From a virus, in the IMG/VR virus record IMGVR_UViG_3300045988_147927, positions 32,001 through 96,000 of that record: a stretch of 64,000 nt of DNA; one strand, written 5' to 3'. The notes under the pieces were generated by a model. It did not search any database. It had not been told where the DNA came from and was given only the letters and a program-made list of their open reading frames with translations. Every line of letters begins with the position of its first letter. Position 1 is the stretch's first letter. Below are positions 3,370 through 56,383 of this stretch, piece after piece. Made by a program: the position numbers and the translations under genes.

Positions 3370-3398
3370 CCTCTTTCTTTTATATTGGTGGTTTGTAT

Positions 3399-6300
3399 AT
3401 GGATGAAGCAAAGAATAAAGAAAATCTAAATAAACGTATACAAAAGATAGAGCAAAAAGAGGCTAAAAGGGTTGAAAAGCAGATTGCTAAACGTGAGCAA
3501 CGTTTTTCTAAAATGCTAGACAATCAGATGAATATGCTAGAGAAGTTCTATGAGACTTCTAATAAGAAAACAAAGGATAGACTTAGTAGTGGGTTACAGA
3601 ATCAGCAGACAATCTTAGAGGATAATTTGTCTGATATGAAGAGAGAGTTCAACTTATATGCTAAGTATATGGACAACAGTACTCGTAAGTATTATAAGGG
3701 TATGATTTCTGTTGCTGATGAAAATTTACAAACAATGAAAGACACAGTATCTAAGCGTTTTGGTGAAATGACTGATGATATTGAAGATGAGATTGTGGGT
3801 ATGACTGATTCTATCTCTGATAGGGTGAAGAGGTTTACAAAGGATATTAGAGATGCCGCTATAGCTTTGGAATTAACAGATGTTGCTGACAATGTTAAAA
3901 GTCAATTAACAGACATTACAGACTCTTTTATTGACAATTTTAGGGAACGTAGTGCTATGTATAATGGCAACATTACAAAAGGCAGTTATCAAAAAATGAT
4001 AGGTAGTGTTGTGGATTCATCATATGCTATGAGTAGGTCAGAGGCATCTGAGCTTGTAAATTCTGTTATGGATGAGATGTCTATGAAAACGGGTGAGCAG
4101 TTAGAGCCGTATTTGAAAGAGATATCAGCGTTACATGCTTCTATAGATGCTAATATTAATGATATGACTGGTATTATGAGAGCAGATATAAATTCAGGGG
4201 CTAGGGGTGCTATATTTAAGAGTATTTCTAATATAGCGACTGGACTTGGTTCTGATACGAATTTAACTGTTGATAGTAATGCTATGTTATCTTCTATGAA
4301 TGAGCATATTGAGGACTTATTTAATTTGTCAAAAGGTGATTCTAAAAAATTCACAGGTATGACTAAATCATTGGCTACGATGGAAGGTATTCAGCAACAA
4401 GAATATAATAAAGGTGTTGAGGAAGCAGGGGGCAAGATTGTAGAGTGGTCTAAAATGTCTGTTCCTGAACTTCTTAAAGATGATGATTTTGTCCATTTTA
4501 CTGCTTTGAGTGGCATGACTGCACAAGATTTCAGAGATAATATTGATAGTGGTAATGCTGATAAAGTCATGATGGCTATGCAAGATACGTTGAAAGATGT
4601 AAAAAATGACCAGTTCGCTTTGAATCAACGTAGAGAGATGTTAGGGTTTAGTTCGGATGCTGTTGCGATGGCTTTAGCAGATGAGGATAGTTTAGCTGAT
4701 AACTTGAAGAAAGTTACTGATAATATTAATGCTAATGCAGATAAGACTGGTTCAAATGCTGAAAGTATGGCTGGTAAGTCTACAGGATTCGTAGAAAAAA
4801 TTGGTAATTGGTTGTCTGATTCATTCCCAGTTAGGTTGGTATCTGATTTCTTTAGTCAGTTAGATGTTAAAGCCGCCAACTTAGCAAATTACGCTATTAT
4901 AGCTTATACCGCCGCTAATGCGTGGGGTAATGTAAAAGGATATTTCAATAGTTTTAAAGGAATATCTAAAGGTTTTAAAGGGATGGGAACATTCTTTGAA
5001 AAGGGAGGATTAAAGAGGGTATTCAGTTCTAAAGGTGCTTTAAGTGGTGCTATAGAGAGTGGATTATCTTCTGTGTTTGGTAAGACAGGAGGTTTTTTCA
5101 GTAAGGTATTTGATGGCTTTAAAGGTGTGTTTTCGTGGGTAGGTAGAGTATTCTATGCAAATGCACCTGAGGGGATAATAAGGGCTTTATCTAAAGTTGG
5201 TTCTAAATTATGGAAGCCTTTTTCTGATTTCTTTGGTACTATTTTCTCTAAAATAGGTAGTAGTGGTATTGGTAAAATATTCAGTAAGTGGTTTGGTGGG
5301 GGAATATTTAAAGTCTTAGGTAAATTTATACCAATCATTGGTGGATTTTTTGATGTTATATTAGACTTCTTTGATGGTTTGAATAATGTTGATAAATGGT
5401 TTGGTGAGAATCATAGTCTATTTGATACTATTATGAGTGGATTAATAGGTTCTATTTTTGGTACTGGTAGTGGTGTTCAAGGTAAGGATTTCGTGAATGA
5501 TTTTCTCACTGTTTTGGCTGGTGCTTTTAAAGGTGGTGCAGCTGGTTTCGCAGTAGGTGGGCCTATGGGTGCCTTGGTAGGTGCTATTATAGGTGCTATT
5601 GCTAATGCTATTGGTGGTGACAGGATTGCTAATGCATTTAATGACTTCAAAGATAGGATTATAGGTATTTTTGATGGTATATTTGATGCTTTACATGATT
5701 TAGTAGCTGATTCATGGGTTGGTAAGTTGTTTGGTATGGAAAAGACTAATCCAGATGCTACAACTTCTGATAATTTAGGGACTATATTTAAGGGTGGTTT
5801 AGAGTTAAATCCATTTTTAGCACCAGCGATGGCTGTATATAATAAGATGACTACACCTATTGATGATAGTGATATAGGTTCTCATGCCGATGGTTTATCA
5901 AATGTACCTTATGATAATTATTTAGCATATTTACATAAAGGTGAGGCTGTTTTAACTGCTAATCAAGCTGGTGCCGTTAGGTCTGATGGTGGTATTGATG
6001 TTGGTAATAGTGGTTCTTTGATTAATGCTTTAGGGCTAAATGGTGAAATAGGTCAAGGACGTTCTGTATTTGAGAAAGTGTTAAGAGGTGTTTTTGGTAT
6101 CACTGGTGAGGATACGTATGGTGTAGGTGGTCTTTTTGGTACTATACTTAAAAACTTATTTAATATTGGTAGTGATGGTATAGGTGGTCTTTTTGGTGAT
6201 GGTTCTTTATTAGACAAATTAAAGTCATTGATTGGTGGTAGTGATTCTTCTTCATCAGGTGGTGGAAAGGGTGCCCCTATGTCTACTGGTAAAGGTGATT

Positions 6301-7070
6301 CTAAGAAGGTGTGGGATTTCTTAGCTGGTAAGGGGTTTTCTGCTAATGCTATTGCTGGCATTATGGGGAATTTACAGGAAGAGAGTGGATTCCGTAGTGG
6401 TGCTATTGAAGGTGATATGGGGAAAACAAATGAGGATTTACTTAAACAGATTACTGCTAGTAAAGATGCATTTTTGGCTCATCAAGGTGGTTTTGGTTTA
6501 GCACAATGGACAAGTGATAACAGAAAATCTGATTTATGGGATTATGCACAGTCTAAGGGTAAGAGTGTTGCTGATTATGATACTCAGTTAGAGTTCTTAT
6601 TTAAGGAATTAAAAGAAAATTATTCTGATACTTATGATGCTTTAATGAATGGTAGCATATCTTTAGAGGAAGCTTGTACAGTATTCGGTGATAAGTATGA
6701 GGGTTTTGGCGCAAATTCAGCCGCTAATAGGTTAGCTAATGCTAAACAAGTATATCAAGATAGTACAGCTACAGCAGGTAGTGGAAAACCTCAATACGCT
6801 CAGGGTACACCTTGGGTACCTGATACACAGGTTGCTTTAATTCACGAGGGAGAGATGGTAGTACCAGCTGATGTAAACCCACTTAATACAACTACAAGTA
6901 CAACAACTGTTTCAGATGAAGATGGTAGTGAAAATGTAGTAGACGCTATAAAGTGGCAAGTTAGTAGGTTGGAGGCTAAGTTTGATATATTAATTAATAT
7001 ATTATCAGGTGGCTCTAGTACTAGAGGTGTTAGTGGTAGTACTTCAGTCGATAATTTGTTGAGAGTGTAA
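3399..7070 (+). CDS. Tail tape measure protein with a C-terminal phage tail-tip lysozyme-like domain
   Basis: About 1220 aa. It has a coiled-coil N-terminus, a glycine-rich hydrophobic middle, and the motif NAIAGIMGNLQEESGF..GGFGLAQWT typical of tail lysozyme domains. Confidence 0.9.
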   Translation: MDEAKNKENLNKRIQKIEQKEAKRVEKQIAKREQRFSKMLDNQMNMLEKFYETSNKKTKDRLSSGLQNQQTILEDNLSDMKREFNLYAKYMDNSTRKYYKGMISVADENLQTMKDTVSKRFGEMTDDIEDEIVGMTDSISDRVKRFTKDIRDAAIALELTDVADNVKSQLTDITDSFIDNFRERSAMYNGNITKGSYQKMIGSVVDSSYAMSRSEASELVNSVMDEMSMKTGEQLEPYLKEISALHASIDANINDMTGIMRADINSGARGAIFKSISNIATGLGSDTNLTVDSNAMLSSMNEHIEDLFNLSKGDSKKFTGMTKSLATMEGIQQQEYNKGVEEAGGKIVEWSKMSVPELLKDDDFVHFTALSGMTAQDFRDNIDSGNADKVMMAMQDTLKDVKNDQFALNQRREMLGFSSDAVAMALADEDSLADNLKKVTDNINANADKTGSNAESMAGKSTGFVEKIGNWLSDSFPVRLVSDFFSQLDVKAANLANYAIIAYTAANAWGNVKGYFNSFKGISKGFKGMGTFFEKGGLKRVFSSKGALSGAIESGLSSVFGKTGGFFSKVFDGFKGVFSWVGRVFYANAPEGIIRALSKVGSKLWKPFSDFFGTIFSKIGSSGIGKIFSKWFGGGIFKVLGKFIPIIGGFFDVILDFFDGLNNVDKWFGENHSLFDTIMSGLIGSIFGTGSGVQGKDFVNDFLTVLAGAFKGGAAGFAVGGPMGALVGAIIGAIANAIGGDRIANAFNDFKDRIIGIFDGIFDALHDLVADSWVGKLFGMEKTNPDATTSDNLGTIFKGGLELNPFLAPAMAVYNKMTTPIDDSDIGSHADGLSNVPYDNYLAYLHKGEAVLTANQAGAVRSDGGIDVGNSGSLINALGLNGEIGQGRSVFEKVLRGVFGITGEDTYGVGGLFGTILKNLFNIGSDGIGGLFGDGSLLDKLKSLIGGSDSSSSGGGKGAPMSTGKGDSKKVWDFLAGKGFSANAIAGIMGNLQEESGFRSGAIEGDMGKTNEDLLKQITASKDAFLAHQGGFGLAQWTSDNRKSDLWDYAQSKGKSVADYDTQLEFLFKELKENYSDTYDALMNGSISLEEACTVFGDKYEGFGANSAANRLANAKQVYQDSTATAGSGKPQYAQGTPWVPDTQVALIHEGEMVVPADVNPLNTTTSTTTVSDEDGSENVVDAIKWQVSRLEAKFDILINILSGGSSTRGVSGSTSVDNLLRV

Positions 7071-7090
7071 TGTTTGGGGGTGTTTGAGTT

Positions 7091-7687
7091 TTGGCAAATG
7101 ACTTTAGTTCTGACAAGTATTCTATGTCAGTTGGTAAGAGTGGGGTTACTACGATGCAGTGGAATCCCACTCAAATCGTACCTTGTTACATTGTAAATCT
7201 TGTTACAGGTATGAAGATTAATTTTGCGACTCTACCTACAGATGTTTCTGAGGATTACTCTGCTAGTTTCGGTTCTCAGCAACCTATGGGTAGGTCATCT
7301 CCATATTTTAACTATGAAAATAGTGAGGCTAGGACAGTTTCTTATAGCGTTACATTGCATAAAGATATTGTACCTGATATGGAGAATGTTGTATTAGAGT
7401 GTAAGAAGTTAGTCTATCCTAAGTATACTGGTAGTTTAGTTACACCGCCTTATTGTTATGTGAGGTTTGGTGCTATGATAAATATGACTGCTATAGTCAA
7501 TTCAGTTAGTGTTGAGTGGGGTGGTGCAGCTGGAACTATATTAGGAGATACTTTGGATAGTGAGTCTTTAGGGGGAAATAGTTCACCTACATATTCTGAT
7601 GTACAATTAAGTTTTAGTTTTACTGAATTAAGATTACGTTCCTTAATGCAAGCTGATAATGTATTTGACGAAGGGCCAGTAAGGTAG
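7091..7687 (+). CDS. Baseplate-proximal structural protein (tube-initiator / Mu gp43 N-terminal-like, tentative)
   Basis: TTG start 10 nt after GGGGG. Lies directly after the tape measure. The motif ATLPTDVSEDYSASF..GRSSPYFNYENSEARTVSYSVTL supports the tentative call. Confidence 0.45.
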   Translation: MANDFSSDKYSMSVGKSGVTTMQWNPTQIVPCYIVNLVTGMKINFATLPTDVSEDYSASFGSQQPMGRSSPYFNYENSEARTVSYSVTLHKDIVPDMENVVLECKKLVYPKYTGSLVTPPYCYVRFGAMINMTAIVNSVSVEWGGAAGTILGDTLDSESLGGNSSPTYSDVQLSFSFTELRLRSLMQADNVFDEGPVR

Positions 7688-7696
7688 GTGATTTTT

Positions 7697-8053
7697 ATGC
7701 ATAAACCGTCATTAATAAAAACAGAAATAACACAGTCTTTTACAAGTAGACAGGATAAAATATCTCGATATTCTAAATTAAAGAGGTTAGTTAATCTCAA
7801 TGGTGATACATATATAGAAACACCTAACAAGTTTACAATAGAGGAGAGTAATAGGGATATTTACTACTCTGTTGAGAAAGGTTTTGAGGATAGATTAGAT
7901 TTAATATCTAATAAATTTTATGGTACACCGTTAATGTACTGGGCAATAGCTGTTATGAATCATATAGATAACCCTTTAGATGTTCCTGTAGGTGTTGTGT
8001 TGAGGATACCAGCCATTGAGTCCATTTACGATACAGGGGTGATTCAAATTTGA
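7697..8053 (+). CDS. LysM-like tail protein (gpX/XkdP-like)
   Basis: The motif RLDLISNKFYGTPLMYWAIAVMNHIDNPLDVPVGVVLRIP fits a LysM-type pattern. RBS AGGTAGGTG precedes ATG 7697. Confidence 0.55.
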   Translation: MHKPSLIKTEITQSFTSRQDKISRYSKLKRLVNLNGDTYIETPNKFTIEESNRDIYYSVEKGFEDRLDLISNKFYGTPLMYWAIAVMNHIDNPLDVPVGVVLRIPAIESIYDTGVIQI

Positions 8054-8533
8054 GTGATTACAAAGATAGTCTTATTACTAGAAATTTAAGTCCTCATCAG
8101 CCTCTATATGCTTTTATAGATTTAAGTATTGATGGGCATAATATATCATATTTCGGTAATAAAGAATTTAATGATTCAGTAATTAGTCTTAATGTGGAAA
8201 GAAAAGGTACTTCTAATCAAGATTTAGCTGGTTCTACTTTTGATATAGAGTTGTATGATGATACTGCTTTAAGAATAGAAGAGCTGTTAGCGAATACTAT
8301 ACCAGCAGGTTCAAATTTTAAGACCGCTAAAGAGTTGAAAGATACTGGTAATAAGGTTACTGATGGTAATATCGAGTGGAAACAACAAGAGGAAGCTAAG
8401 AAAAAAGAGCAGGCAGAGAAGGATAATACATATACAGAGGAAGATGAAAAGAAAGACCCTAATCATAAAGCAGGCACTAAAAAACAGTCTGGTGGTGCAA
8501 CTCAGTCTGGAAATGTTAGGTGTAAATATGGAT
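8050..8533 (+). CDS. Baseplate hub protein, exon 1 (the exon end is approximate: 8533 or 8541)
   Basis: TTG start after AGGGGTG. The ORF reaches a stop at 8542-8544 just inside the intron. The position between the LysM protein and the gpV spike supports the hub call. Confidence 0.6.
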
Positions 8534-9035
8534 GGTGTGATTAAATGTGCTACATATATTCATAGTTATAGTTATGAATAGGTATGTATATAGCACGTAT
8601 AGTCCATACATCTAGTGATAGGTGTGTGTCGAGTGGTAACACTCGGAGATTCATTGAATTGCTGGAAAGTCCTAAAGCTCAATTAACTACAACGTGATAT
8701 CTAATAATATGATATGAGCGTGAATGGTAGCGAAAGCAGAAAAAATAATTGAGATGGTATAAGGTGAAATAAAAGCTATATCACATATGATATAGTCCTA
8801 AGTACTGAGATAATGGACAATCAGCAGCCAAGCACGTAAGTGAAGGTTCAACGACTATCCTGTGAAGGAGTACGGCTCTAGTGAGTGGGTGAGAATCCCT
8901 TAAATGGAAGTGGTGAAGGTCTTTCAGATAGAAAGATTAAGATATAGTCTGTGCCTACATGAAAGTGTAGGATGCACGTAGTGGTGCTGGCTAGAAGTAG
9001 CGATTCTAGTTGAACGAGCATCCTCTCATAGAGAG
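8534..9035 (+). ncRNA. Group I intron catalytic core (P1-P9)
   Basis: Internal guide candidate GTCCATA (8602-8608) pairs with exon TATGGAT (8527-8533), ending in a U.G pair. P2 is CGAGTG-GTAA-CACTCG (8630-8645). Core blocks: P AATTGCTGGAAAG 8657-8669, Q AATCAGCAGCC 8819-8829, R GTTCAACGACTATCC 8846-8860, S AAGATATAGTC 8939-8949. The GCAGCCAAG.C..AAGT stretch resembles the Tetrahymena intron. Confidence 0.75.
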
Positions 9036-9131
9036 TTTTATGGTTTTATATATATTGAAATTAATCTCCTTTTGTAGTACATTAATAATATAATGTTTAT
9101 TGTTAATGATACGAAAGGGGGTGTAAATCTC

Positions 9132-10224
9132 GTGAATAAGAGTTTTAAAGTTAGGATTTATCCAAATCAAGAACAGAAAGTCTTGATTGATAAGACATTT
9201 GGATGTGCAAGATTCATATACAATTTTATGTTGAATCTGAAACAAAAATTGTATGAGTATCATAATATTTCTTTAGGTTTTTATGACCTATCTAAGATTC
9301 TTACAGAAATTAAAAGACATAAATTGTGGCTTAAAGAAGTTGATAAGTGGGCATTACAAAATGCTTTAAAAGATTTAGATAGTGCTTATAAAAGATTTTA
9401 TAATGGTGGTGGATTTCCTAAGTTTAAATCTAAAAAGCGAGATAAAAACTCCTATCGTACAAATCATAGAATACAGTTAATTGTAGATAATAAGAAAGTT
9501 AAAATTTCCTAAAGTTGGTAGTATTAAGTTCAGAGATAAAAGTAGATTTGATGGAATTACTAAAATTTATAATATCACTATTTCTAGGACATCTAGTGGA
9601 AAATATTATGCTAGTATATCTGCTGAGGTTAATATTGAACATTTTGAGAAAACCAATCAGAGTGTGGGTATTGACTTGGGATTAAAAGATTTCTGTATCT
9701 TAAATGATGGAACTAAGTTTGAAAATCCTAAATTTTTAGTTAGAAATGAAAAGCGACTTAGATTACTTCAAAAATCGTTAAGTCGCAAGATTTGTGGTTC
9801 TAAAAACTATGAAAAAGCTAAGATAAAGTTAGCTAAATTTCATGAGTATATTGTTAATTTTCGTAAAGATTATTTACATAAAATATCGTTATATTTGGTT
9901 AGAAATTATGATATTTTATGTGCAGAAACATTGAGAGTTAAGAATATGGTAAAGAATCATAAGTTAGCTAAATCAATTAGTGATGTTAGTTGGTATGAAT
10001 TTTGTAGGCAGTTAGAGTATAAGTGTCTGTGGTATGGAAAGAGATTTGTACAGATTAGTACATATTTTGCATCATCACAAATATGTTCTAATTGTGGGTA
10101 TAAGAATTCTGATGTTAAAAATCTCAATGTAAGAGAATGGACTTGCTCTAAATGTGGCAGTCATAATGAAAGAGATATCAATGCATCGATTAATATTTTG
10201 CATGAAGGATTAAGAATTATATAA
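9132..10224 (+). pseudogene. tnpB: tnpB (RNA-guided nuclease, zinc-finger type), broken by one frameshift
   Basis: GTG start after AAAGGGGG. Motifs present: [17 protein letters not shown] (RuvC D), CAETL (E), CSNCG...CSKCG (zinc finger) and RDINASINI (D). The frame changes at A4 9501-9504. With A3 it would read ..[15 protein letters not shown].. Confidence 0.8.
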
Positions 10225-10366
10225 TTTCAGTATATAGAACCATAGGACATATGGGGATAGCCTACTGTCATAGTGTAAGACGTATAGTGAATCTGTTTCA
10301 TTATGTGTAATTATTGGGTAGGAACTTCGTCACTTTAATGAGTGGTGAGAGGATGTCAGAGAAAAG
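10225..10366 (+). ncRNA. Omega-RNA scaffold-like 3' tail of the IStron, carrying the 3' splice site
   Basis: Conserved with the orphan copy at 881-1009, with hairpin covariation. Ends in GAGAGGATGTCAG(AGAAAAG). Confidence 0.6.
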
Positions 10367-13300
10367 GTCAAGTAATAGAAGATATTTCTCTTATAGGGAA
10401 GGCTTTAAAATATACCTTAGCTTTTGAGGGGCCTGCTTTAACCCTAACATTAAATTGTGTGGCTGAGGCTGATGTTAAGACTACGCAAAAGTTGAATATG
10501 GAGTTTAGCGCTGAAAAGTTTGGGGGTAAGCCATCAGATATTGTTAGAGCATTATGTGAGAAAGCTCATATCAAGATTGGTCGGATTGTAGAAACAAAAC
10601 CAATCTTAGGTGATGATGGTAAACCTAAAGAGTTTAAGATGGGTTCTCGTACTATGAGGGAGTTTATTGCAGATGAGTTGTTAGAAAAAGCTACACCTAC
10701 TGATTCTGATAAACCTGGTTATAAATTCTTTTTGCAAGTTGTTGATGGGGAAGAGAAAGCATTTTTTGTTCCTAATGATATGTATGGTGATATGACTGTT
10801 ATCACATATAAGAAGATGGAAGAGACTACAACAACTACTACAACCACAACAACTTCTAATGATAAGCCTAGTGGGTTAAGTCCGTATCAAAAAGTTATGG
10901 GTGTATCTACGCCAATTCTAGGGCATACAAGAGATACTAATGTTAGTGTAGTAGGTGATGGTAAGGTTGTCTTTGTAGGTGATTTTAGAGTTAGAGATTT
11001 ACAAAATTCAGTACCTGATAATAAAGATTTAATGTATATCTATGATGATAAAGCTAATTATAGGTGGTTAAAGGATAACTTTGAATTAATAGAGTCTAAG
11101 TTACATATGGGGTATCGTGTATATTTTATGTTAGGGCATAATGATATAGACAATATTCTTAATTATGTTGAGTTTTATAATAAAGTAGCTAAAGAATTAG
11201 ATACAAAGGGTGTTCAAGTCTTTGTTGTATCTGTTTTACCTGTTTTCATGGGTAAAACAGATTTACATAATAGTAATATACAACGATTTAATAATGCTAT
11301 AAATCAGAATAGAGTTAGGGAATTGCATTATGTAAATATTTATGGTGATATTTTAAAGACTTTAAGAAGTAATAATACTAAACAAGATGGTATTTCTTAT
11401 AATAATAGATTAATGCAAGATGTATATAATAGAATAGTCTATTATCGTGAGGATTTAACTACATCTAAGAATATAGGTCTTAGTAGAAGTAATATTATAA
11501 ATGGGTTAGAATTTGTTACACATACATTACCGGATATGTTAAATACAAATTCATATCAAGGTAATGTTTCAGATGATGAGTATTATGGTAGTTTTATTGG
11601 TGTAGAGGAAGATACATCAAACCTAGTAGCATTAGCTTTAGCTGATGCCTCAAATGAGGATATAGCAAATTTACTATCTGAGATGACATTGTGGAAGATG
11701 TACTTAGAGGATGAGAATAATAAGGTATCTAAGGTAGGTATACTTGGTAGTGATAAGACTGAGAGTATCGATAAGTCTAAGTTACAGTTTGATAAAAATA
11801 AATTAGTTAATGCTTTCATAGATGTACTAGATAAGAAGGGATATACTAAGGAAGTTAAAGAGTATGTATCACTTGTAAATACATTTACTGATACTATTAA
11901 AGATAAGAAATTAGATACAACTGATAAATATGTAAATGCTTTGACTATGTTATCTAGCAAACTTGGTAAAGATAGTTCTATTTCAAAAACTATTACTAAT
12001 GTTGTTAAGGTTATTACTGAGAATAAAGATAAGGTTCTTAATGTTAAGGACAAAAAGATTTCTTATGATGATTTAGCTACAGATATAGTTTCTAAATTAC
12101 TACCTAATCAGAGTGCTAATATAAGTAAAATCACTGATAAGGTTTCATCTATTATGAAGTTAGATAGAGATAAGATAAAAAAAGGTGATTATTCTGAATT
12201 ACAAGGAATGTTAGCTAAAGAGCTAGGGATTAATGATAAAGATATTAATAAATATGTAGAGATAGGTAAGACTATATCTGAGATATATAAGAATAGGGAA
12301 TACTTTGACATAAAAGATTTAAGTCTAGTTTCTACTGATTTATTAAAGAGTGTTGTAGGGGAAGAAAAAGTAAAAAAAGTTGAGAAGTATATAGATACTG
12401 CTCAGAATTTATACAAGGCTTTTAGTGGTGCTAAAGATATAAAGGATATCAATAGTGCTGTAACTTCTTTGTCTGATGTGTTAGGTAAGAATACAAAAAT
12501 TAATAGGTATATAGATACTGCTAGGTCTTTTATGGATATCATTAATAAAGGTAGTGTTGGTACAGGCATCATTAATACTAATAATGGAATTAGTAAAATC
12601 ATAAATGATAGGTTGCCTAATATAGCACAGGCAGGTACTTTAGGTGGAGTTGTGGCATCTACTGTAGGTATATCACCAACTTCTACTAAAGAGGTGTTAA
12701 AGGCTTATGTTCCTAAAGGTGTTGATAGTGGTGTTACTAAGGTAAATGGTAGTCCTACTGATGGTACTAAGACAGGTCAATCATCTAATGTTACAAAAGA
12801 TGGGATATCAGATGAGGAAATGAAGAAAGGTGTTAGGTCTGTTACTTTTGGTGGTAAAAAGACTAAAATGGAGATTTGTGGTGAGTATGAGATTTACACA
12901 GGAAGACCTGATGGTAGGGTAATTAGTTTCTCACCAGAGTTTGAGAGTGATAATATAGCTACAAATAAAGTACCTACAAGTGCATTGACAATAGATGGTG
13001 TTAGGAATGAGATGCTAGAGTGTACTATTGAGGGTGTTGGTGGTGCTTTAGCTAGTGATGCTTATATGGAGAGGTCTAATCAAGAGGGGAGTAGTAATGT
13101 TGGTGTTGTGTTAGGTATGAGTGGTTCTTCTTTCAAGAATTTAGAATCATCAGCCGCAAGTATGTGGAGTCGATATTTTAGTTCTGTATATGGTGCTAGT
13201 TTAGAGATATTAGGCGATACTAGAGTTAAGTTTCAAGGACATATCAAGATAGCAGTTTATACTAAGTACGGTTTTTTACACCATACCAGTGGTATTTACA

Positions 13301-13854
13301 ATATACAAGGTATAACAGATTCTATTAATGGTGGTATGTTTACTACTACACTTGATTTACAGAAAAATAGTGATGAAGTTAAGAAAAAGAAAAAAGGAAA
13401 GGAAAAGAATAAAGTGGATGAAACAAAAGGACATGATGTAGGTGATGGTAAATACTGGGTTAAACAAAGTGGCAAGGTATCTTTAGAGGGTGCTATAAGT
13501 GGGATACCTAGTGCTTTAGATATGTTAGGTAAGTGGTTCTATGATAGGTCAGGGCATAAGTTGGTTGTTACCTCTGTTACTGATGGAGACCATGCATATG
13601 GTGAACACTGTCATGCTAATGGTTGGAAGATGGATGTCAATGATTGGTATGGGCCAGAGGGGTTACAAGGTGGATTAATTATTAATAGTGATGATACACC
13701 TGGCTCGATTTGTCTTGACTTTATTGAATATGGTAGGTCTATAGGTCTAGGTATGAATTTTGAGGGAGACCATATAGATATTCAAATGGATGGCACTGAG
13801 TGGAATGAAAATAATCCTGGTGGTGCTAAAGATAATGGTGGTTTTAGAGGATAG
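10367..13854 (+). CDS. Baseplate hub protein, exon 2: poly-Thr linker, degenerate SGNH-like domain and C-terminal M15-type peptidase-like domain
   Basis: The frame is open from 10342. Ten Thr codons lie at 10825-10854. SGNH-like blocks are VFVGDF, LGHND and DGISYN. The M15-like motif is VVTSVTDGDHAYGEHCHANGWKMDV...GDHIDIQ. Confidence 0.6.
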
Positions 13855-13861
13855 AAGTTAA

Positions 13862-14680
13862 ATGTCTATACGCAATGATGATTTTAGTGGTAGTCTAAGG
13901 ACACCTACTGAACTTAGTGGTATATATCGTGCTAGGGTTGAGAATAATGTAGACCCTTTACATATAGGTAGGGTTCAAATACGTGTGCCAATGGTTCATA
14001 AAACAGTTTCTAGTGGTGGTACCTCTAATGATATGTTGCCTTGGGCCAGCTACTGTTCGTCTATAGGTGCTGGGTACAATTATGGTTCTTTTATTGTTCC
14101 TGAGATAGGTGAGTATGTGTGGGTTATGTTTGAAGATAATGACCCAGAGAAGCCTGTATACCTAGGTTCTGTTTTTGGTACTGACTCTACTCTTGAAAAG
14201 AGGTATGGTAGTGATGATACTACTGGTGTTTGGAGTGGTGTAGTTGGTGCTAATGAGGTTCCCATTGAATCACAAAGAGAGAGTCCATCTCATAAGATGA
14301 TTTATAAATCCAGACACGGTACTATGATGTACTTCGATACCGATGATAAGACAAATTCCTTTGGTGTTGAGGATGCCAATAATCAGAAGTTCAAGATATC
14401 ATCTGTAGAGGGGAAAACATTCACATTAATGGAAGGTGAGAATAATGTGGTTGTTAAGATACATGATGGTAGGGTTGACATCGGTTATGAGGGTGGTAGA
14501 GGTATTCAAGTTATACCAAGTGATGGAAATATAGTATTAAAGGCTAGTGGTGCTACTATAACATTATCAGATTCCATTACTATGAAAGCAGATAGTGTTA
14601 GTGTTAAATCAAGTTCATTTAGTGTTAAGTCTGATGATATTAAGATGACAGCTGGGAATGTTAAGATTATAGAGACATAG
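13862..14680 (+). CDS. Baseplate spike protein (gpV / gp5 OB-fold family)
   Basis: IYRARVENNVDPLHIGRVQIRVP...FIVPEIGEYVWVMFEDNDPEKPVYLG is the typical Phage_base_V motif. Confidence 0.8.
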   Translation: MSIRNDDFSGSLRTPTELSGIYRARVENNVDPLHIGRVQIRVPMVHKTVSSGGTSNDMLPWASYCSSIGAGYNYGSFIVPEIGEYVWVMFEDNDPEKPVYLGSVFGTDSTLEKRYGSDDTTGVWSGVVGANEVPIESQRESPSHKMIYKSRHGTMMYFDTDDKTNSFGVEDANNQKFKISSVEGKTFTLMEGENNVVVKIHDGRVDIGYEGGRGIQVIPSDGNIVLKASGATITLSDSITMKADSVSVKSSSFSVKSDDIKMTAGNVKIIET

Positions 14681-14714: not shown

Positions 14715-14845
14715 AGTGTAAAAAATTCATGTTAATTTTAGTATGGTATTCGATTATAAATATATGTGAGTGTTTAGAGTTGATTACTTTGTGTTTGGTT
14801 GATAAGTGTATTCTGTAGAAGTAGTTTTTATGATGTTTAGTGTAT

Positions 14846-16235
14846 CTTCTTACTGAAAGGTTGTTTTTATAGTATGTATATATCATAATCATCTTGTAAA
14901 AATAGAAAGTGGGGTGATAATAATGTACTTAACAATGAAGCAACAAGTAAAGCATTTAACTAAAGAAGAATATAATATTTTAAGAGAGTTGTGCAGAATA
15001 TCAAAGAATTTAACTAATCAAGCAATTTATAATATTAGACAATATTATTTTCAAGAAAAACAATATTTAAGGTATGAGTCTAACTATCATGAGTTAAAAA
15101 ATTCTGAGAATTATAAGTTGTTAAATTCTAATATGGCTCAACAGACCATTAAAGGTGTTGACTCAATGTTTAAGTCATTTTTTGCTTTAATTAGATTAGC
15201 AAAACAAGGTAAATATAGTTTTAAGCATATAAGATTGCCTAATTATTTACCTAAAGATGGGTATTCATGTTTAATTATTGCTCAGTTTAGTATTAAAGAT
15301 GGTAATGTTTTAATGATTCCATATTCTAATGCTTTTAATAAAAAATACAAAACAAGAGTTAGTGTTAGAGTTCCTAAAGTATTAGAAGATAAAAAGATAA
15401 AAGAAATTAGAATTATACCTAAATTTAATGCTAGGTTCTTCGAGATTCAATATACTTATGAAATTCAAGGAGAAAATATACAATTAAATACTAACAATGC
15501 ACTGGCTATTGATTTAGGGGTTAATAATTTGTGTACTTGCGTAACAAACATAGGCAAATCTTTTATTATTGATGGAAGAAAGTTAAAGTCTATCAATCAA
15601 TTCTTTAATAAGAGAAATGCGAGATTACAGTCCATTAAAGATAAGCAAAATATCAAGAAACAAACAAAGCAACAATATTTAATCTCTCAAAAGAGAAAGA
15701 ATAGAGTTGAGGATTATATCAATAAAGCATGTAGGTATATTATTAATTATTGTTTGTCTAATGATATTGGTATTTTAGTTATTGGTTATAATCAGTCATT
15801 TCAAAGTAAAGCTAATTTAGGGAATATAAACAATCAAACTTTTACTCAATTACCTTTTGGTAGGGTTAGAGATAAGTTAGATTGTTTATGCAAACGATAT
15901 AATATGAATTATATTCTACAAGAAGAATCTTATACGTCTAAAGCTAGTTTCTTTGATAATGATATTCTACCTATTTATAATGCGGATAATCCACAAACCT
16001 ATGAGTTTAGTGGTAAACGTATCAAAAGAGGTTTATACCAAACTAAAAATAATTATCGTTTTAATGCAGATTGTAATGGAGCATTAAATATTCTTCGTAA
16101 AAGTAAAGCTGTAGACTTAACAGTCTTATGCAGTAGGGGCGAACTGGACACGCCTAAAAGAATAAGGGTTTATTAGGATATCAAACTTCTTAATAAAATG
16201 ACTTTATGTTGTTTTTAGAATCATAGGATGTTCAG
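14846..16235 (+). mobile_element. Solo-tnpB IS200/IS605-family element, copy A (left boundary approximate)
   Basis: Similarity to copy B starts near TTACTGAAA (14850) and stops at GATGTTCAG (16235). The flanks are unrelated. There is no tnpA. Confidence 0.65.
14923..16176 (+). CDS. tnpB: TnpB-family RNA-guided nuclease lacking the CxxC zinc finger
   Basis: RuvC motifs are present: IDLGVNN, QEESYTSK and NADCNGALNIL. There are no Cys pairs between the E and the last D. RBS GTGGGG precedes ATG 14923. Confidence 0.8.
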   Translation: MYLTMKQQVKHLTKEEYNILRELCRISKNLTNQAIYNIRQYYFQEKQYLRYESNYHELKNSENYKLLNSNMAQQTIKGVDSMFKSFFALIRLAKQGKYSFKHIRLPNYLPKDGYSCLIIAQFSIKDGNVLMIPYSNAFNKKYKTRVSVRVPKVLEDKKIKEIRIIPKFNARFFEIQYTYEIQGENIQLNTNNALAIDLGVNNLCTCVTNIGKSFIIDGRKLKSINQFFNKRNARLQSIKDKQNIKKQTKQQYLISQKRKNRVEDYINKACRYIINYCLSNDIGILVIGYNQSFQSKANLGNINNQTFTQLPFGRVRDKLDCLCKRYNMNYILQEESYTSKASFFDNDILPIYNADNPQTYEFSGKRIKRGLYQTKNNYRFNADCNGALNILRKSKAVDLTVLCSRGELDTPKRIRVY

Positions 16236-16263: not shown

Positions 16264-16743
16264 TTGGCTTTTTATTACAATAATGAATTTAAGGATACAA
16301 TAGCTGGTAGAGGATTATCACTTAATAATACTTTTACAGTAAATTATAGAGATGGTAAAGGGGTAACAAATGTAATTAGTGGTGAGGAGAAGATAAACGA
16401 GAGTATATTCTCAATTCTATCGACTAGGGTAGGTGAAAGGTTTTTCGTGCCAGAGTTTGGTAGTCGATTACATTTAGTACTTTTTGAGCAAAATAAATAT
16501 ATTGCTCAGGATTTGATATCTATTTATATACGAGAAGCATTGTCTAACTGGGAAAAGAGGATTGTTGTTGAGGATGTGGCTTTAGGAGATGGGTGGGAGG
16601 ATTCTAATGTTGTTCCAATTCATATTACCTATAGTCTTGCTAACAGTAATGTCATGGGTTCATATGTATACCCTTTTAATAGGAGTATAGATGGTGTTGA
16701 TATGTATGATTTAGGGAGTTCTAACAATATAACAGCTTATTAG
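16264..16743 (+). CDS. Baseplate wedge protein (gp25 / gpW family)
   Basis: IFSILSTRVGERFFVPEFGSRLHLVLFEQN matches the GPW_gp25 signature. TTG start 8 nt after AGGGG. Confidence 0.85.
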   Translation: MAFYYNNEFKDTIAGRGLSLNNTFTVNYRDGKGVTNVISGEEKINESIFSILSTRVGERFFVPEFGSRLHLVLFEQNKYIAQDLISIYIREALSNWEKRIVVEDVALGDGWEDSNVVPIHITYSLANSNVMGSYVYPFNRSIDGVDMYDLGSSNNITAY

Positions 16744-31955: not shown

Positions 31956-32265
31956 GGGAATAATAAAGTCAAATGGAACTTTTAACAGAATAAGTATCAA
32001 TTCTAATTATGTGAATATCAATACATCATCTGTTGGTAATACTGTTAATGGTGCTTTTGAGACTTCAAGTAGGGTAAAGGTTACAAAAGATGAAGTTATG
32101 GATATGCTAAAAGAGAAACAAGACAAATTAGTAGCTGGTAGTGGTATTAAGTTAGATGAGACTACTAATGAGATATCCGTATCTACTGATAAAATCGTTG
32201 TTCAAGAGGGTGAAAATGTTGCTGATTTGACAGCATTGTATTTATTAGCAAAGGGTGAGAATTAA
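31945..32265 (+). CDS. Hypothetical fibre-associated protein
   Basis: ATG 31945/31948 lies after GAGGTG. LVAGSGIKLDE is a fibre-repeat motif. The listed ORF start at 31825 overlaps the previous gene and is unlikely. Confidence 0.55.
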   Translation: MMNEGIIKSNGTFNRISINSNYVNINTSSVGNTVNGAFETSSRVKVTKDEVMDMLKEKQDKLVAGSGIKLDETTNEISVSTDKIVVQEGENVADLTALYLLAKGEN

Positions 32266-55516: not shown

Positions 55517-55604
55517 GGATAGTTGTCCGAGTGGTTTAAGGAGTTGGTCTTGAAAACCAATGTACAGAAATGTACCAAAGGTTCAAATCCTTTACTATCC
55601 GCCA
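55517..55604 (+). tRNA. tRNA-Ser (anticodon UGA), class II, CCA encoded
   Basis: Acceptor GGATAGT/ACTATCC. Anticodon arm TTGGT-CTTGAAA-ACCAA. Has a long variable arm. T-arm AAAGG-TTCAAAT-CCTTT. Confidence 0.9.
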
Positions 55605-55607
55605 CAT

Positions 55608-55699
55608 GGAGAGGTGGTAGAGTGGCTTATTACACTTCCCTGCTAAGGAAGAGTGGAGATATACTTCCACCGTGGGTTCAAATCCCACCCTCTCCGCCA
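55608..55699 (+). tRNA. tRNA-Ser (anticodon GCU), class II, CCA encoded
   Basis: Acceptor GGAGAGG/CCTCTCC. Anticodon arm CTTCC-CTGCTAA-GGAAG. T-arm GTGGG-TTCAAAT-CCCAC. Confidence 0.9.
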
Positions 55700-55707
55700 A
55701 TAAATAT

Positions 55708-55784
55708 GGTTCTATAGCTCAGGTGGATAGAGCAATGGTTTCCTAAACCATGTGTCGGCAGTTCGAGTCTGTCTAGGACCACCA
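55708..55784 (+). tRNA. tRNA-Arg (anticodon CCU), CCA encoded
   Basis: Acceptor GGTTCTA/TAGGACC. Anticodon arm ATGGT-TTCCTAA-ACCAT. T-arm GGCAG-TTCGAGT-CTGTC. Confidence 0.9.
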
Positions 55785-55988
55785 TAGGGTTACTGGATAA
55801 TTTACCTTGACGTGGTGTAACCTCTTTAAACTAAAGAATTATCAATCGGTATAGGATACAAAGATGAGAACATGTATCGCTGAAGGTATATAGTAAAGTA
55901 TATATCAAGAGAGCCAGTGTTATTGAACCTTTTTAAGAATATAATATAACGTAAAAACCGATATAATATTTTTGCTGGCACAACTCAT

Positions 55989-56065
55989 TCCGATGTAACC
56001 CAATAGGTAGAGGTAGCTGACTGTTAATCAGTGTGTTGTAGGTTCGAGTCCTTCCATCGGAGCCA
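55989..56065 (+). tRNA. tRNA-Asn (anticodon GUU), CCA encoded
   Basis: Acceptor TCCGATG/CATCGGA. Anticodon loop CTGTTAA. T-arm GTAGG-TTCGAGT-CCTTC. Confidence 0.85.
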
Positions 56066-56068
56066 TAT

Positions 56069-56143
56069 GAACTCTTAGCTCAGTGGTAGAGCCACCGGCT
56101 CATAACCGGCAGGTCGCTGGTCCGAATCCAGCAGGGTTCACCA
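56069..56143 (+). tRNA. tRNA with CAU anticodon (Met, or Ile2 if lysidine-modified), CCA encoded
   Basis: Acceptor GAACTCT/AGGGTTC. Anticodon loop CTCATAA. T-arm GCTGG-TCCGAAT-CCAGC. Confidence 0.85.
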
Positions 56144-56298
56144 TTAAGGTCTACTTTTTACCTTGCATAGATGATTTATGGTAGCTATGTATGATGTCTT
56201 TTTGAGATGTTTTAATATCATACAAAATCTTATATGCGAAAAATCGAAGAGCATAAAATATCTTGGCTGCACAGCTGGTGGAAGTCCAGCATATACTT

Positions 56299-56383
56299 GT
56301 CCGTGTGGTGAAATTGGAAAACATGACTGACTTAGAATCAGTTGACTTATGTCTTGTAGGTTCGAGTCCTACCACGGACACCA
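56299..56383 (+). tRNA. tRNA-Leu (anticodon UAG), class II, CCA encoded
   Basis: Acceptor GTCCGTG/CACGGAC. Anticodon arm ACTGA-CTTAGAA-TCAGT. Has a variable arm. T-arm GTAGG-TTCGAGT-CCTAC. Confidence 0.9.

Follow-up and report, generated by a model that had tools for sequence, protein, structure and literature searches.

Sequence evidence for a group A IStron, probably decaying and spared by splicing, in a baseplate-module gene of an uncultured phage

Introduction

IStrons of group A join a group I intron of the IA2 type to an insertion sequence (IS) that begins after P9.2. They insert after TTGAT, ATTAT, or TTTAT, end in TCAG, and carry a GAACGA motif along with an inverted-repeat (IR) stem of 6 to 10 bp (PMC4227781). 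In the survey that describes these traits, the group A elements come from bacterial species only, and the IStrons CbISt3 and CbISt4, found in the Clostridium botulinum phages c-st and D-1873, belong to group B (PMC4227781). Here, we describe an element in a 64,000-nucleotide (nt) stretch of viral DNA, positions 32,001 to 96,000 of IMG/VR record IMGVR_UViG_3300045988_147927, which we refer to as the window. It is very likely that positions 8542 to 10359 represent a non-autonomous group A IStron (CdISt1-like, of the IS200/IS605 type) that was inserted in the sense orientation after TGAT within a single gene for 1328 amino acids (aa), and that this copy is decaying and protected by splicing. An earlier reading of the DNA, made from its letters alone and hereafter called the sequence-only reading, had recognized the IStron architecture of group I core, IS200/IS605 tnpB, and guide-RNA-like tail, and our analysis supports it.

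The window element shares its architecture with CdISt1, FnISt1, LbISt1, and MfISt1 of Clostridioides difficile, Fusobacterium, Leptotrichia, and Megamonas (Tourasse et al. 2014). Specifically, it has an IA2-type ribozyme on its 5' side, a tnpB that follows GAACGA, a TCAG end, a U.G pair in the P1 helix, and an IR stem of 10 bp, and it stands without target duplication after GTGAT, a variant with TGAT. Its length of about 1.8 kb, the missing open reading frame (ORF) A, the lack of a target duplication, and the U.G pair in the helix are common to group A IStrons. Unlike those listed, the window element is phage-borne, lies in a gene of the tail/baseplate module, has GTGAT as its target, and carries a guide, GUCC, that leaves exon position -4 unpaired. 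Its tnpB is likewise frameshifted. According to reviews, no case was known in which TnpB alone was lost, and in the window element TnpA is absent as well.

CbISt3 and CbISt4 likewise reside in phage genomes, but they form a separate lineage of the IS607 type: ORF A encodes a serine recombinase, the target is GG, the 3' end is CGG, and the 5' exon ends in G. In the IStrons CdiIStron and CboIStron, splicing conflicts with production of the omega-RNA (Zedaveinyte et al., bioRxiv 10.1101/2023.11.20.567912). As in those elements, the splice sites of the window element are the transposon ends, and its 3' end is common to the splicing and guide-RNA folds, whereas the overlap, at 10347-10349, is deduced here from sequence and covariation. 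A further comparison is ISDra2, with whose TnpB the window protein aligns over its full length. The transposon-associated motif (TAM)-like sequence of the window is a variant of TTGAT, and a right-end scaffold with a terminal hairpin is found in both. The window tnpB differs in being embedded in an intron, broken, and unaccompanied by tnpA, and its scaffold was compared within its own family. Classical phage group I introns (T4 td/I-TevI, Twort, SPO1-type) carry protein homing endonucleases. The mobility module of the window element is instead a transposon-type RNA-guided nuclease, and the IStron family hits many targets that share just a 3- to 4-nt motif. The sequence-only reading knew of no RNA-guided nuclease in such a niche within a baseplate gene. 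IStrons in phages had, however, already been published, those being of group B.

Empty sites and the splice junction

An IMG/VR search with the protein encoded by exon 2 returned 33 loci (L001 to L033). Every locus that covers the insertion site has a continuous ORF there, and the 28 element-free alleles, in 20 distinct DNA versions, read ..GNVRC[KR]YGWC[DN]R[KN]GQVIEDISL.. across it. Two of these loci, L001 and L002, are 97 to 98% identical to the window in DNA on both sides of the site, except that L001 falls to 91% over the upstream 6 kb. Their empty site is ..TATGGTTGGTGTGAT/AGAAAAGGTCAAG.., with the core TGGTGTGAT/AGAAAAGG, where the slash marks the point of insertion. The element therefore spans exactly 8542-10359 and has duplicated no target bases; U is the last base of the 5' exon and G that of the element, and the spliced protein would read ..KYGWCD/RKGQVIED.. 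across junction 8541/10360. Conceptual excision of the element gives exactly the frame seen in the element-free alleles. TGAT at the end of exon 1 is the target and TAM-like motif, and the in-frame TAA at 8542-8544 is the intron's first codon, which would terminate an unspliced mRNA.

These comparisons bear directly on the sequence-only reading. It had correctly noted that an ORF opening at 8050 stops at 8542-8544 and that the same frame reopens at 10342, while the extent that it gave the element, 8534-10366, is corrected by the empty sites. It had also offered two in-frame junctions. L001 and L002 exclude the preferred one, 8533/10367, and the 28 element-free alleles, these two included, bear out the second choice, 8541/10360; the same junction is fixed by the comparison of the spliced protein with uninterrupted homologues, a check that had been recommended and that we ran on the IMG/VR relatives. 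Far from encoding two separate genes, the site-covering relatives all have one continuous ORF, in keeping with the earlier view that a single gene is split and that the phage needs splicing for the full protein. The exact junction thus explains the apparent split of a large virion gene and avoids its mis-annotation as two genes.

An independent Logan assembly (ERR589636) matches the window at 100% from 4050 to 8894, including the 5' junction, and breaks within the element. In the GenBank phage collection, megablast found no match to the element or to the surrounding 10 kb, distant blastn found similarity at the level of tnpB only, and tblastn with the spliced N terminus found no match. A homologous-protein search with the spliced N terminus returned none either, and the exact 21-mer of the junction had no match in IMG/VR or the JGI metagenomes.

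Ribozyme core and splice-site helix

Along its full length, the Rfam group I model (RF00028, Intron_gpI) aligns to 8602-8971 and scores 75.1 bits (E 1e-18; gathering score 50), a result that answers another check that the sequence-only reading had called for. This match was obtained on a 2.1-kb scan; scans of the whole window by gathering score or E value lose it to speed filters. The blocks P, Q, R, and S assigned earlier (8657-8669, 8819-8829, 8846-8860, and 8939-8949) correspond to the RF00028 consensus for P4, P4'/P6, J6/7-P7, and P7', and an insertion of ~51 nt follows P7 where IA2 introns have P7.1 and P7.2. The long hairpin at 8547-8596, GTCCATA at 8602-8608, and the GNRA hairpin at 8630-8645 were all located correctly. 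From P1, the pairing continues into an extended hairpin (8545-8598) at the position of the IS left-end hairpin, and the long hairpin of the sequence-only reading is thus the distal portion of P1. When 8515-8650 was folded alone with RNAfold, P1, the long hairpin, P2, and the GNRA hairpin appeared in that order (z -3.9). Furthermore, all nine predicted pairs of P2 are kept in 38/38 sequences, six of them with compensatory changes (RNAalifold).

Relatives inserted elsewhere also support P1. In a set of 37 insertions, the bases that follow the guide G covary with the final four of the exon. The exon sequence TGAT occurs with the guide GTCA (11 insertions), GTCC (11), or GTTA (1), TTAT with GTAA (9), CTAT with GTAG (3), and GTCC also with CGAT (3) and AGAT (1). 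In an alignment of the 37 sequences anchored at the junction and the guide G, the U.G pair and the A-U pair at position -2 are each present in 37/37. Position -3 is always paired, as G-C (25 sequences), U-A (11), or G.U (1). Intron positions +1 and +2 are paired in 36 to 37 of the 37, and the distal stem contains many compensatory changes. Overall, 75% of the cells are paired in the P1 register versus 29 to 46% in slid registers, with a covariation score of 0.41 versus at most 0.16. The correspondence between target and guide (TGAT-GUCA, TTAT-GUAA, CTAT-GUAG) makes a clean natural data set, in which one 4-nt motif must serve as transposase target, TAM, and exon half of P1.

The sequence-only reading had drawn the splice-site helix differently, pairing GTCCATA with TATGGAT at 8527-8533. 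Its guide base, G8602, was right, and its exon partner lies eight bases too far upstream. We rejected this helix on the grounds that the target/guide covariation, the empty sites, and the minimum-free-energy (MFE) fold give the 8541 register. The 7-bp complement (8527-8533/8602-8608) is real and specific to this allele. It rests on a synonymous GGA glycine codon that is GGT in all 28 element-free alleles, and its bases 8605-8608 are also used in P2. It may have arisen by chance, may be a marker that hitch-hiked with the flank, or may act as a rival 5' splice site. Over the slightly longer interval 8527-8535, the sequence is TATGGATGG solely in the IStron-carrying allele and TATGGTTGG in 28/28 element-free alleles.

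An improbable alternative builds on this complement, namely that the intron is dead or is spliced at 8533/10367 and that the phage remains viable with two polypeptides or with a protein lacking WCDRK. The complement does end in a U.G pair, dependent as it is on the GGA codon of this allele only, and translation could resume from an in-frame GTG at 10342. Yet one ORF with GWC[DN]R[KN]G spanning the junction is kept in 28/28 relatives, the rest of the family lacks such a complement at the equivalent exon position, and the GUCC(A) guide is conserved beside unrelated exons. In addition, 8605-8608 belong to a P2 that covaries, the MFE fold chooses the 8541 register, and the score of the core clears the Rfam threshold by a wide margin. 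The junction 8533/10367 itself was rejected, as it would remove WCDRK, which is conserved in all relatives, and as evidence from the family is also contrary.

Inverted-repeat helix and omega-RNA-like tail

At the opposite end, the element is closed by an IR helix (9018-9027/10347-10356) with 10 of 10 positions paired, which encloses the tnpB region. Arms occur at the equivalent two places in most relatives, with some double changes (in L056a, ATATCCTTTT with AAAAGGATAT). The structured, guide-RNA-like tail that had been seen after tnpB is supported by compensatory changes in 14 of 18 pairs (RNAalifold, 36 aligned tails). A single-sequence fold agrees with this structure, and its energy is not unusual (z -0.4). 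The scaffold ends in GGAUGUCAG; its last nine bases, GGATGTCAG, occupy 10351-10359, and G10359 is the intron's terminal G. Because the terminal hairpin of the scaffold and the IR helix both use 10347-10349, they are mutually exclusive, an overlap that may amount to the competition between splicing and guide RNA described for IStrons of C. difficile and C. botulinum. On a separate note, 10234-10347 weakly matches the Rfam family Ref70 (RF02841, Enterococcus sRNA 70; 22.5 bits, E 0.59). Ref70 and the scaffold share the motif AGAACC..GG..GGGGAUAGCC, and Ref70, too, may be a guide RNA of an IS605 element.

With the guide position taken from the TnpB literature, the guide of a read-through omega-RNA would be the beginning of exon 2. 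The same 16 nt follow TGAT identically in the empty sites of L001 and L002. In most relatives of ~62% identity, the position of TGAT is occupied by TAAT or TAAC, and these relatives would therefore not be targets.

The two ends also speak to whether a plain IS200/IS605 insertion simply landed beside an unrelated, older phage intron, a view that we regard as barely credible. The empty site lacks intron, tnpB, and tail as one precise block, the unit starts on its left with P1 of the intron, and the IR helix ties its right end to the end of the ribozyme. Among loci with enough upstream sequence, tnpB has an intron core no more than 700 nt upstream in 40 of 70 viral loci, compared with 8 of 73 genome loci. 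What lends the view some support is that the remaining 30 of the 70 viral tnpB loci are without an upstream core, such that the lineage also exists as a plain IS.

Frameshifted tnpB and the status of this copy

Pfam assigns the first part of tnpB (9132-9512) to HTH_OrfB_IS605 (5.5e-19) and a later part (9664-10224) to OrfB_IS605 (8.7e-22) and Cas12f1-like_TNB (7.3e-23). The sequence-only reading had taken 9132-10224 as one ORF. In fact, frame 0 ends at a TAA (9510-9512) and the remainder is in frame +1. Relative to six related copies, the window has one surplus T (..AAAATTTCC.. here, ..AAAATTCC.. in the relatives), and tnpB is intact in 36/36 other curated copies, each giving one uninterrupted high-scoring segment pair over residues 1-363. 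The repaired 363-aa TnpB aligns end to end with ISDra2 TnpB (PDB 8bf8, 8exa, 8h1j; E 2.5e-95). It contains the RuvC D/E/D contexts IDLG, AE(T)L, and RDxNA, the latter two as AETL and RDINA. The triad residues are numbered as in the ISDra2 structures.

As assembled, the ORF of this copy is split by the frameshift, whereas an active TnpB/omega-RNA (OMEGA) nuclease would have it intact. The proposal that an RNA-guided nuclease occupies the niche of a homing endonuclease is thus probably untrue for the present copy. An autonomous IS200/IS605 element would also encode a Y1 (HUH) TnpA, and 9028-9131 contains no ORF A. Because it has no tnpA and an interrupted tnpB, the window copy is unable to move by itself.

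A less likely, though by no means negligible, alternative is that the IStron is fully active and that its frameshift stems from faulty sequencing or assembly. In element-free alleles of co-infecting phages, TnpB and its omega-RNA would then cut TGAT followed by AGAAAAGGTCAAGTAA, and the element would spread by homing in the manner of a classical intron endonuclease. The extra base does lie in a T/A run, the other 36 copies are intact, the repaired protein keeps its RuvC contexts and aligns over its full length with ISDra2 TnpB, and the empty sites of L001 and L002 hold the exact would-be target. Homing has been proposed as the way in which TnpB-only IStrons spread (PMC13565253). An error of assembly is possible because the homopolymer is short and the independent contigs do not cover the site: two Logan contigs (ERR589636), 100% identical to the window, break at 8894 and 9591 and miss it. 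The same gap cuts both ways, as no independent assembly covers the frameshift site and the window sequence as given contains the stop codon.

Divergence from L002 is also relevant to the fully active alternative. Upstream of the insertion, 8 mismatches fall within 104 nt (8438-8541), followed by none for ~700 nt. On the 3' side (10360-11860), there are ~3 to 6 mismatches per 100 nt for ~1.5 kb and then none. This cluster resembles, and may be, a co-conversion tract. It fits arrival by recombination with a diverged donor without being specific to such arrival; mosaic divergence is common in phages, and the pattern is not homing-specific. The presence and absence of the element between phages that are 98% identical provide a natural test of whether TnpB and omega-RNA drive intron homing between co-infecting phages, an idea raised in reviews.

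Our preferred interpretation is that of a decaying, splicing-protected copy. The boundaries, the intron core, the covariation in P1, P2, and the tail, and the frameshift in the present assembly are shown by the data, and from them we infer how the copy would be spliced, how it would make omega-RNA, and how it arrived. The group I ribozyme would remove the whole element from the pre-mRNA, with P1 offering U8541.G8602 as the 5' splice site. The 10-bp IR helix would place tnpB in a loop and G10359 at the core, and exon ligation would restore ..GWCD/RKGQ... An mRNA that stayed unspliced would end at the intron's TAA and yield a 164-aa fragment. The 3' 120 nt of the element could double as omega-RNA scaffold, with the first ~16 nt of exon 2 as guide, and the terminal hairpin of the scaffold would compete with the splicing helix for 10347-10349. 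The element most likely arrived through TnpA acting in trans or through TnpB-triggered recombination during co-infection. The window copy probably survives only by splicing and most likely persists as a decaying element that splicing keeps harmless. Its ribozyme should be under selection because the host gene is kept intact in all relatives.

Some observations weigh against this interpretation. The exon contributes just 3 bp to P1 (GAU/GUC), because position -4 faces C8605. The allele-specific 7-bp complement could act as a rival 5' splice site and cause mis-splicing. Just downstream of the ribozyme core, the element contains a weak terminator-like hairpin (9023-9035, CTCTC-ATA-GAGAG and then TTTTATGG) that shares bases with the 5' arm of the IR helix. 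An assembly error could also have created the frameshift, and TnpB would then be intact. Finally, splicing at 8541/10360 is predicted from DNA comparisons.

Interrupted gene and its neighbors

The gene order around the element, with tape measure, wedge-like, split, spike, and gp25-like genes (Table 1), fits a location in the baseplate module and supports it as the expected place of a hub. The sequence-only reading had called the split gene a baseplate hub. The baseplate position is backed by this gene order, and the hub label is a positional guess, as the split protein had no significant Pfam match (searched whole, as an insert-deleted chimera, or as subdomains) and no PHROG match. AlphaFold2 on the single sequence of the split protein gave a pLDDT of 35.

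Table 1. Coordinates of the element, its parts, and the surrounding genes in the window
Feature	Coordinates	Strand	Basis or comment
Tape measure with lysozyme domain	3393-7070		
198-aa protein	7091-7687		
121-aa protein	7688-8053		"Baseplate wedge" PHROG
Split 1328-aa gene	8050-8541 + 10360-13854		
Exon 1	8050-8541	+	Ends ..TGG TGT GAT; ORF list and in-frame continuation in element-free alleles
P1	8539-8604	+	G8539-C8604, A8540-U8603, U8541.G8602 (5' splice site), U8542-A8601, A8543-U8600
Whole IStron	8542-10359	+	1818 nt, a multiple of 3; TAA start, TCAG end; empty-site comparison with L001/L002
Group I ribozyme core, P2 through P9	8602-8971	+	Rfam RF00028 (Intron_gpI), model positions 1-253
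P2 and P2.1	8605-8645	+	P2 8605-8614/8619-8628, loop GUGA; P2.1 is the GNRA hairpin 8630-8645
GAACGA motif and IR 5' arm	9012-9027	+	GAACGA (9012-9017) marks the intron/IS boundary; arm 9018-9027 GCATCCTCTC
tnpB (IS200/IS605 ORF B)	9132-10224	+	+1 frameshift; extra T in ATTT at ~9505-9508, TAA 9510-9512
Omega-RNA-like scaffold and right end	10238-10359	+	RNAalifold on 36 tails; single-sequence fold agrees
Scaffold SL1	10240-10244/10250-10254	+	
Scaffold long-range helix	10261-10265/10318-10322	+	
Scaffold terminal hairpin	10326-10333/10342-10349	+	
IR helix 3' arm	10347-10356	+	GAGAGGATGT
Would-be guide of read-through omega-RNA	10360-10375	+	AGAAAAGGTCAAGTAA, first 16 nt of exon 2
Exon 2	10360-13854	+	Interrupted gene
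gpV-type spike	13862-14680		PF04717; PHROG "hub and tail lysozyme"
gp25-like wedge protein	16264-16743		

Related IStrons in phages and bacteria

In IMG/VR, 198 relatives of the repaired TnpB were confirmed, with identities of up to 80% on viral contigs, versus at least 485 in bacterial and archaeal genomes, where the closest bacterial protein of the genome scan is 55% identical. The best genome matches are a Gemella-labelled contig of 208 kb, followed by Anaerovibrio, Leptotrichia, and Clostridium. In the loci that were fetched, the intron part of the window element matches 62 places and the tail 48. We curated 37 distinct full elements and used the curated starts, as an automatic P1 finder mis-assigned several. 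Each opens with TA[AG], immediately preceded by ..GAT or ..TAT, has [TC]CAG as its 3' end, and measures 1.74 to 1.88 kb, or ~2.2 kb where a 144-aa IS200 Y1 transposase precedes tnpB. L084 carries such a 144-aa Y1_Tnp protein (Pfam 2.4e-40), and tnpA-bearing relatives thus occur on viral contigs. Upon conceptual excision, about two-thirds of the elements regain a sense ORF that is open for at least 40 codons on each side, while an antisense ORF is almost never regained.

Some phages appear to hold several copies. At least three are present on each of two ~212-kb contigs, 3300008150_000008 (L004/L068, L035, L062) and 3300008134_000001 (L038, L065, L073). The baseplate region that contains the window site is also hit elsewhere. 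In L031 (499-630), an IStron whose TnpB is 84% identical ends right before hub residue T960 (..LGD/TRVKF..), in a hub segment that is 98% identical to the window; the window is empty there, with a CGAT site at 13218/13219. In L028 and L032, a different and unrelated IStron (TnpB ~33% identical) lies inside the same baseplate-module gene, and in L003 and L004 an IStron lies in the upstream gene at ..ATTTAT/GATACAGGGG.

These patterns suggest a broader hypothesis, which we hold tentatively and at somewhat less than even confidence: a clade of metagenomic phages of ~130 to 235 kb may carry, in structural and other genes of their own, multi-copy group A IStrons of two target classes, ..GAT and ..TAT, with intron guides to match and in some cases with tnpA, that spread by TnpB/omega-RNA homing upon co-infection and for which the baseplate region is a recurrent target. 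If true, an RNA-guided nuclease would fill the niche that protein homing endonucleases hold in classical phage introns. IStrons, TnpB and its omega-RNA, the conflict between splicing and guide RNA, and two group B phage copies are already published. The literature searched describes IStrons in Firmicutes and Fusobacteria, plus the two group B copies in C. botulinum phages. Among the papers searched, we found none on group A IStrons in phages or on multi-copy IStron populations in large phages. What would be new is a diversified set of multi-copy group A IStrons, abundant in large uncultured phages and located inside structural genes, and this phage-wide population is a more interesting lead than the single element.

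Separately, the Gemella-labelled contig, L114 (USNF01000001.1, "uncultured Gemella sp.," 208,376 bp), has an IStron with a 5' part nearly identical to the one on the viral contig L097. At ~200 kb, like the phages, L114 may be a phage genome that was binned into a bacterial metagenome-assembled genome; if so, it would offer a hint on host range.

Other features of the window

A scan with nhmmer and motifs found no further IStron-type introns in the window. A second mobile element of the IS200/IS605 type, without an intron, occupies the intergenic interval 14758-16235 between the gpV-like spike and gp25-like genes and is absent from L001 and L002. It was inserted after GATTAT, ends in ..GGATGTTCAG, and contains an intact TnpB-like ORF of 420 aa (14914-16176; Pfam OrfB_IS605 2e-29). 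In addition, a solo tail resembling an omega-RNA and right end lies at 882-1009, possibly 525-1009 (nhmmer E 6.6e-9 versus 10225-10359), and ends in ..GAGAGGATGTCAG at 1009. Upstream of it there is no tnpB of the IStron family, and an 86-aa ORF (611-871) precedes it. The scaffold motif is also found on the contig that bears L002. Lastly, 55517-56380 contains six tRNA genes (Rfam tRNA, 56 to 63 bits); tRNA clusters are common in large phages.

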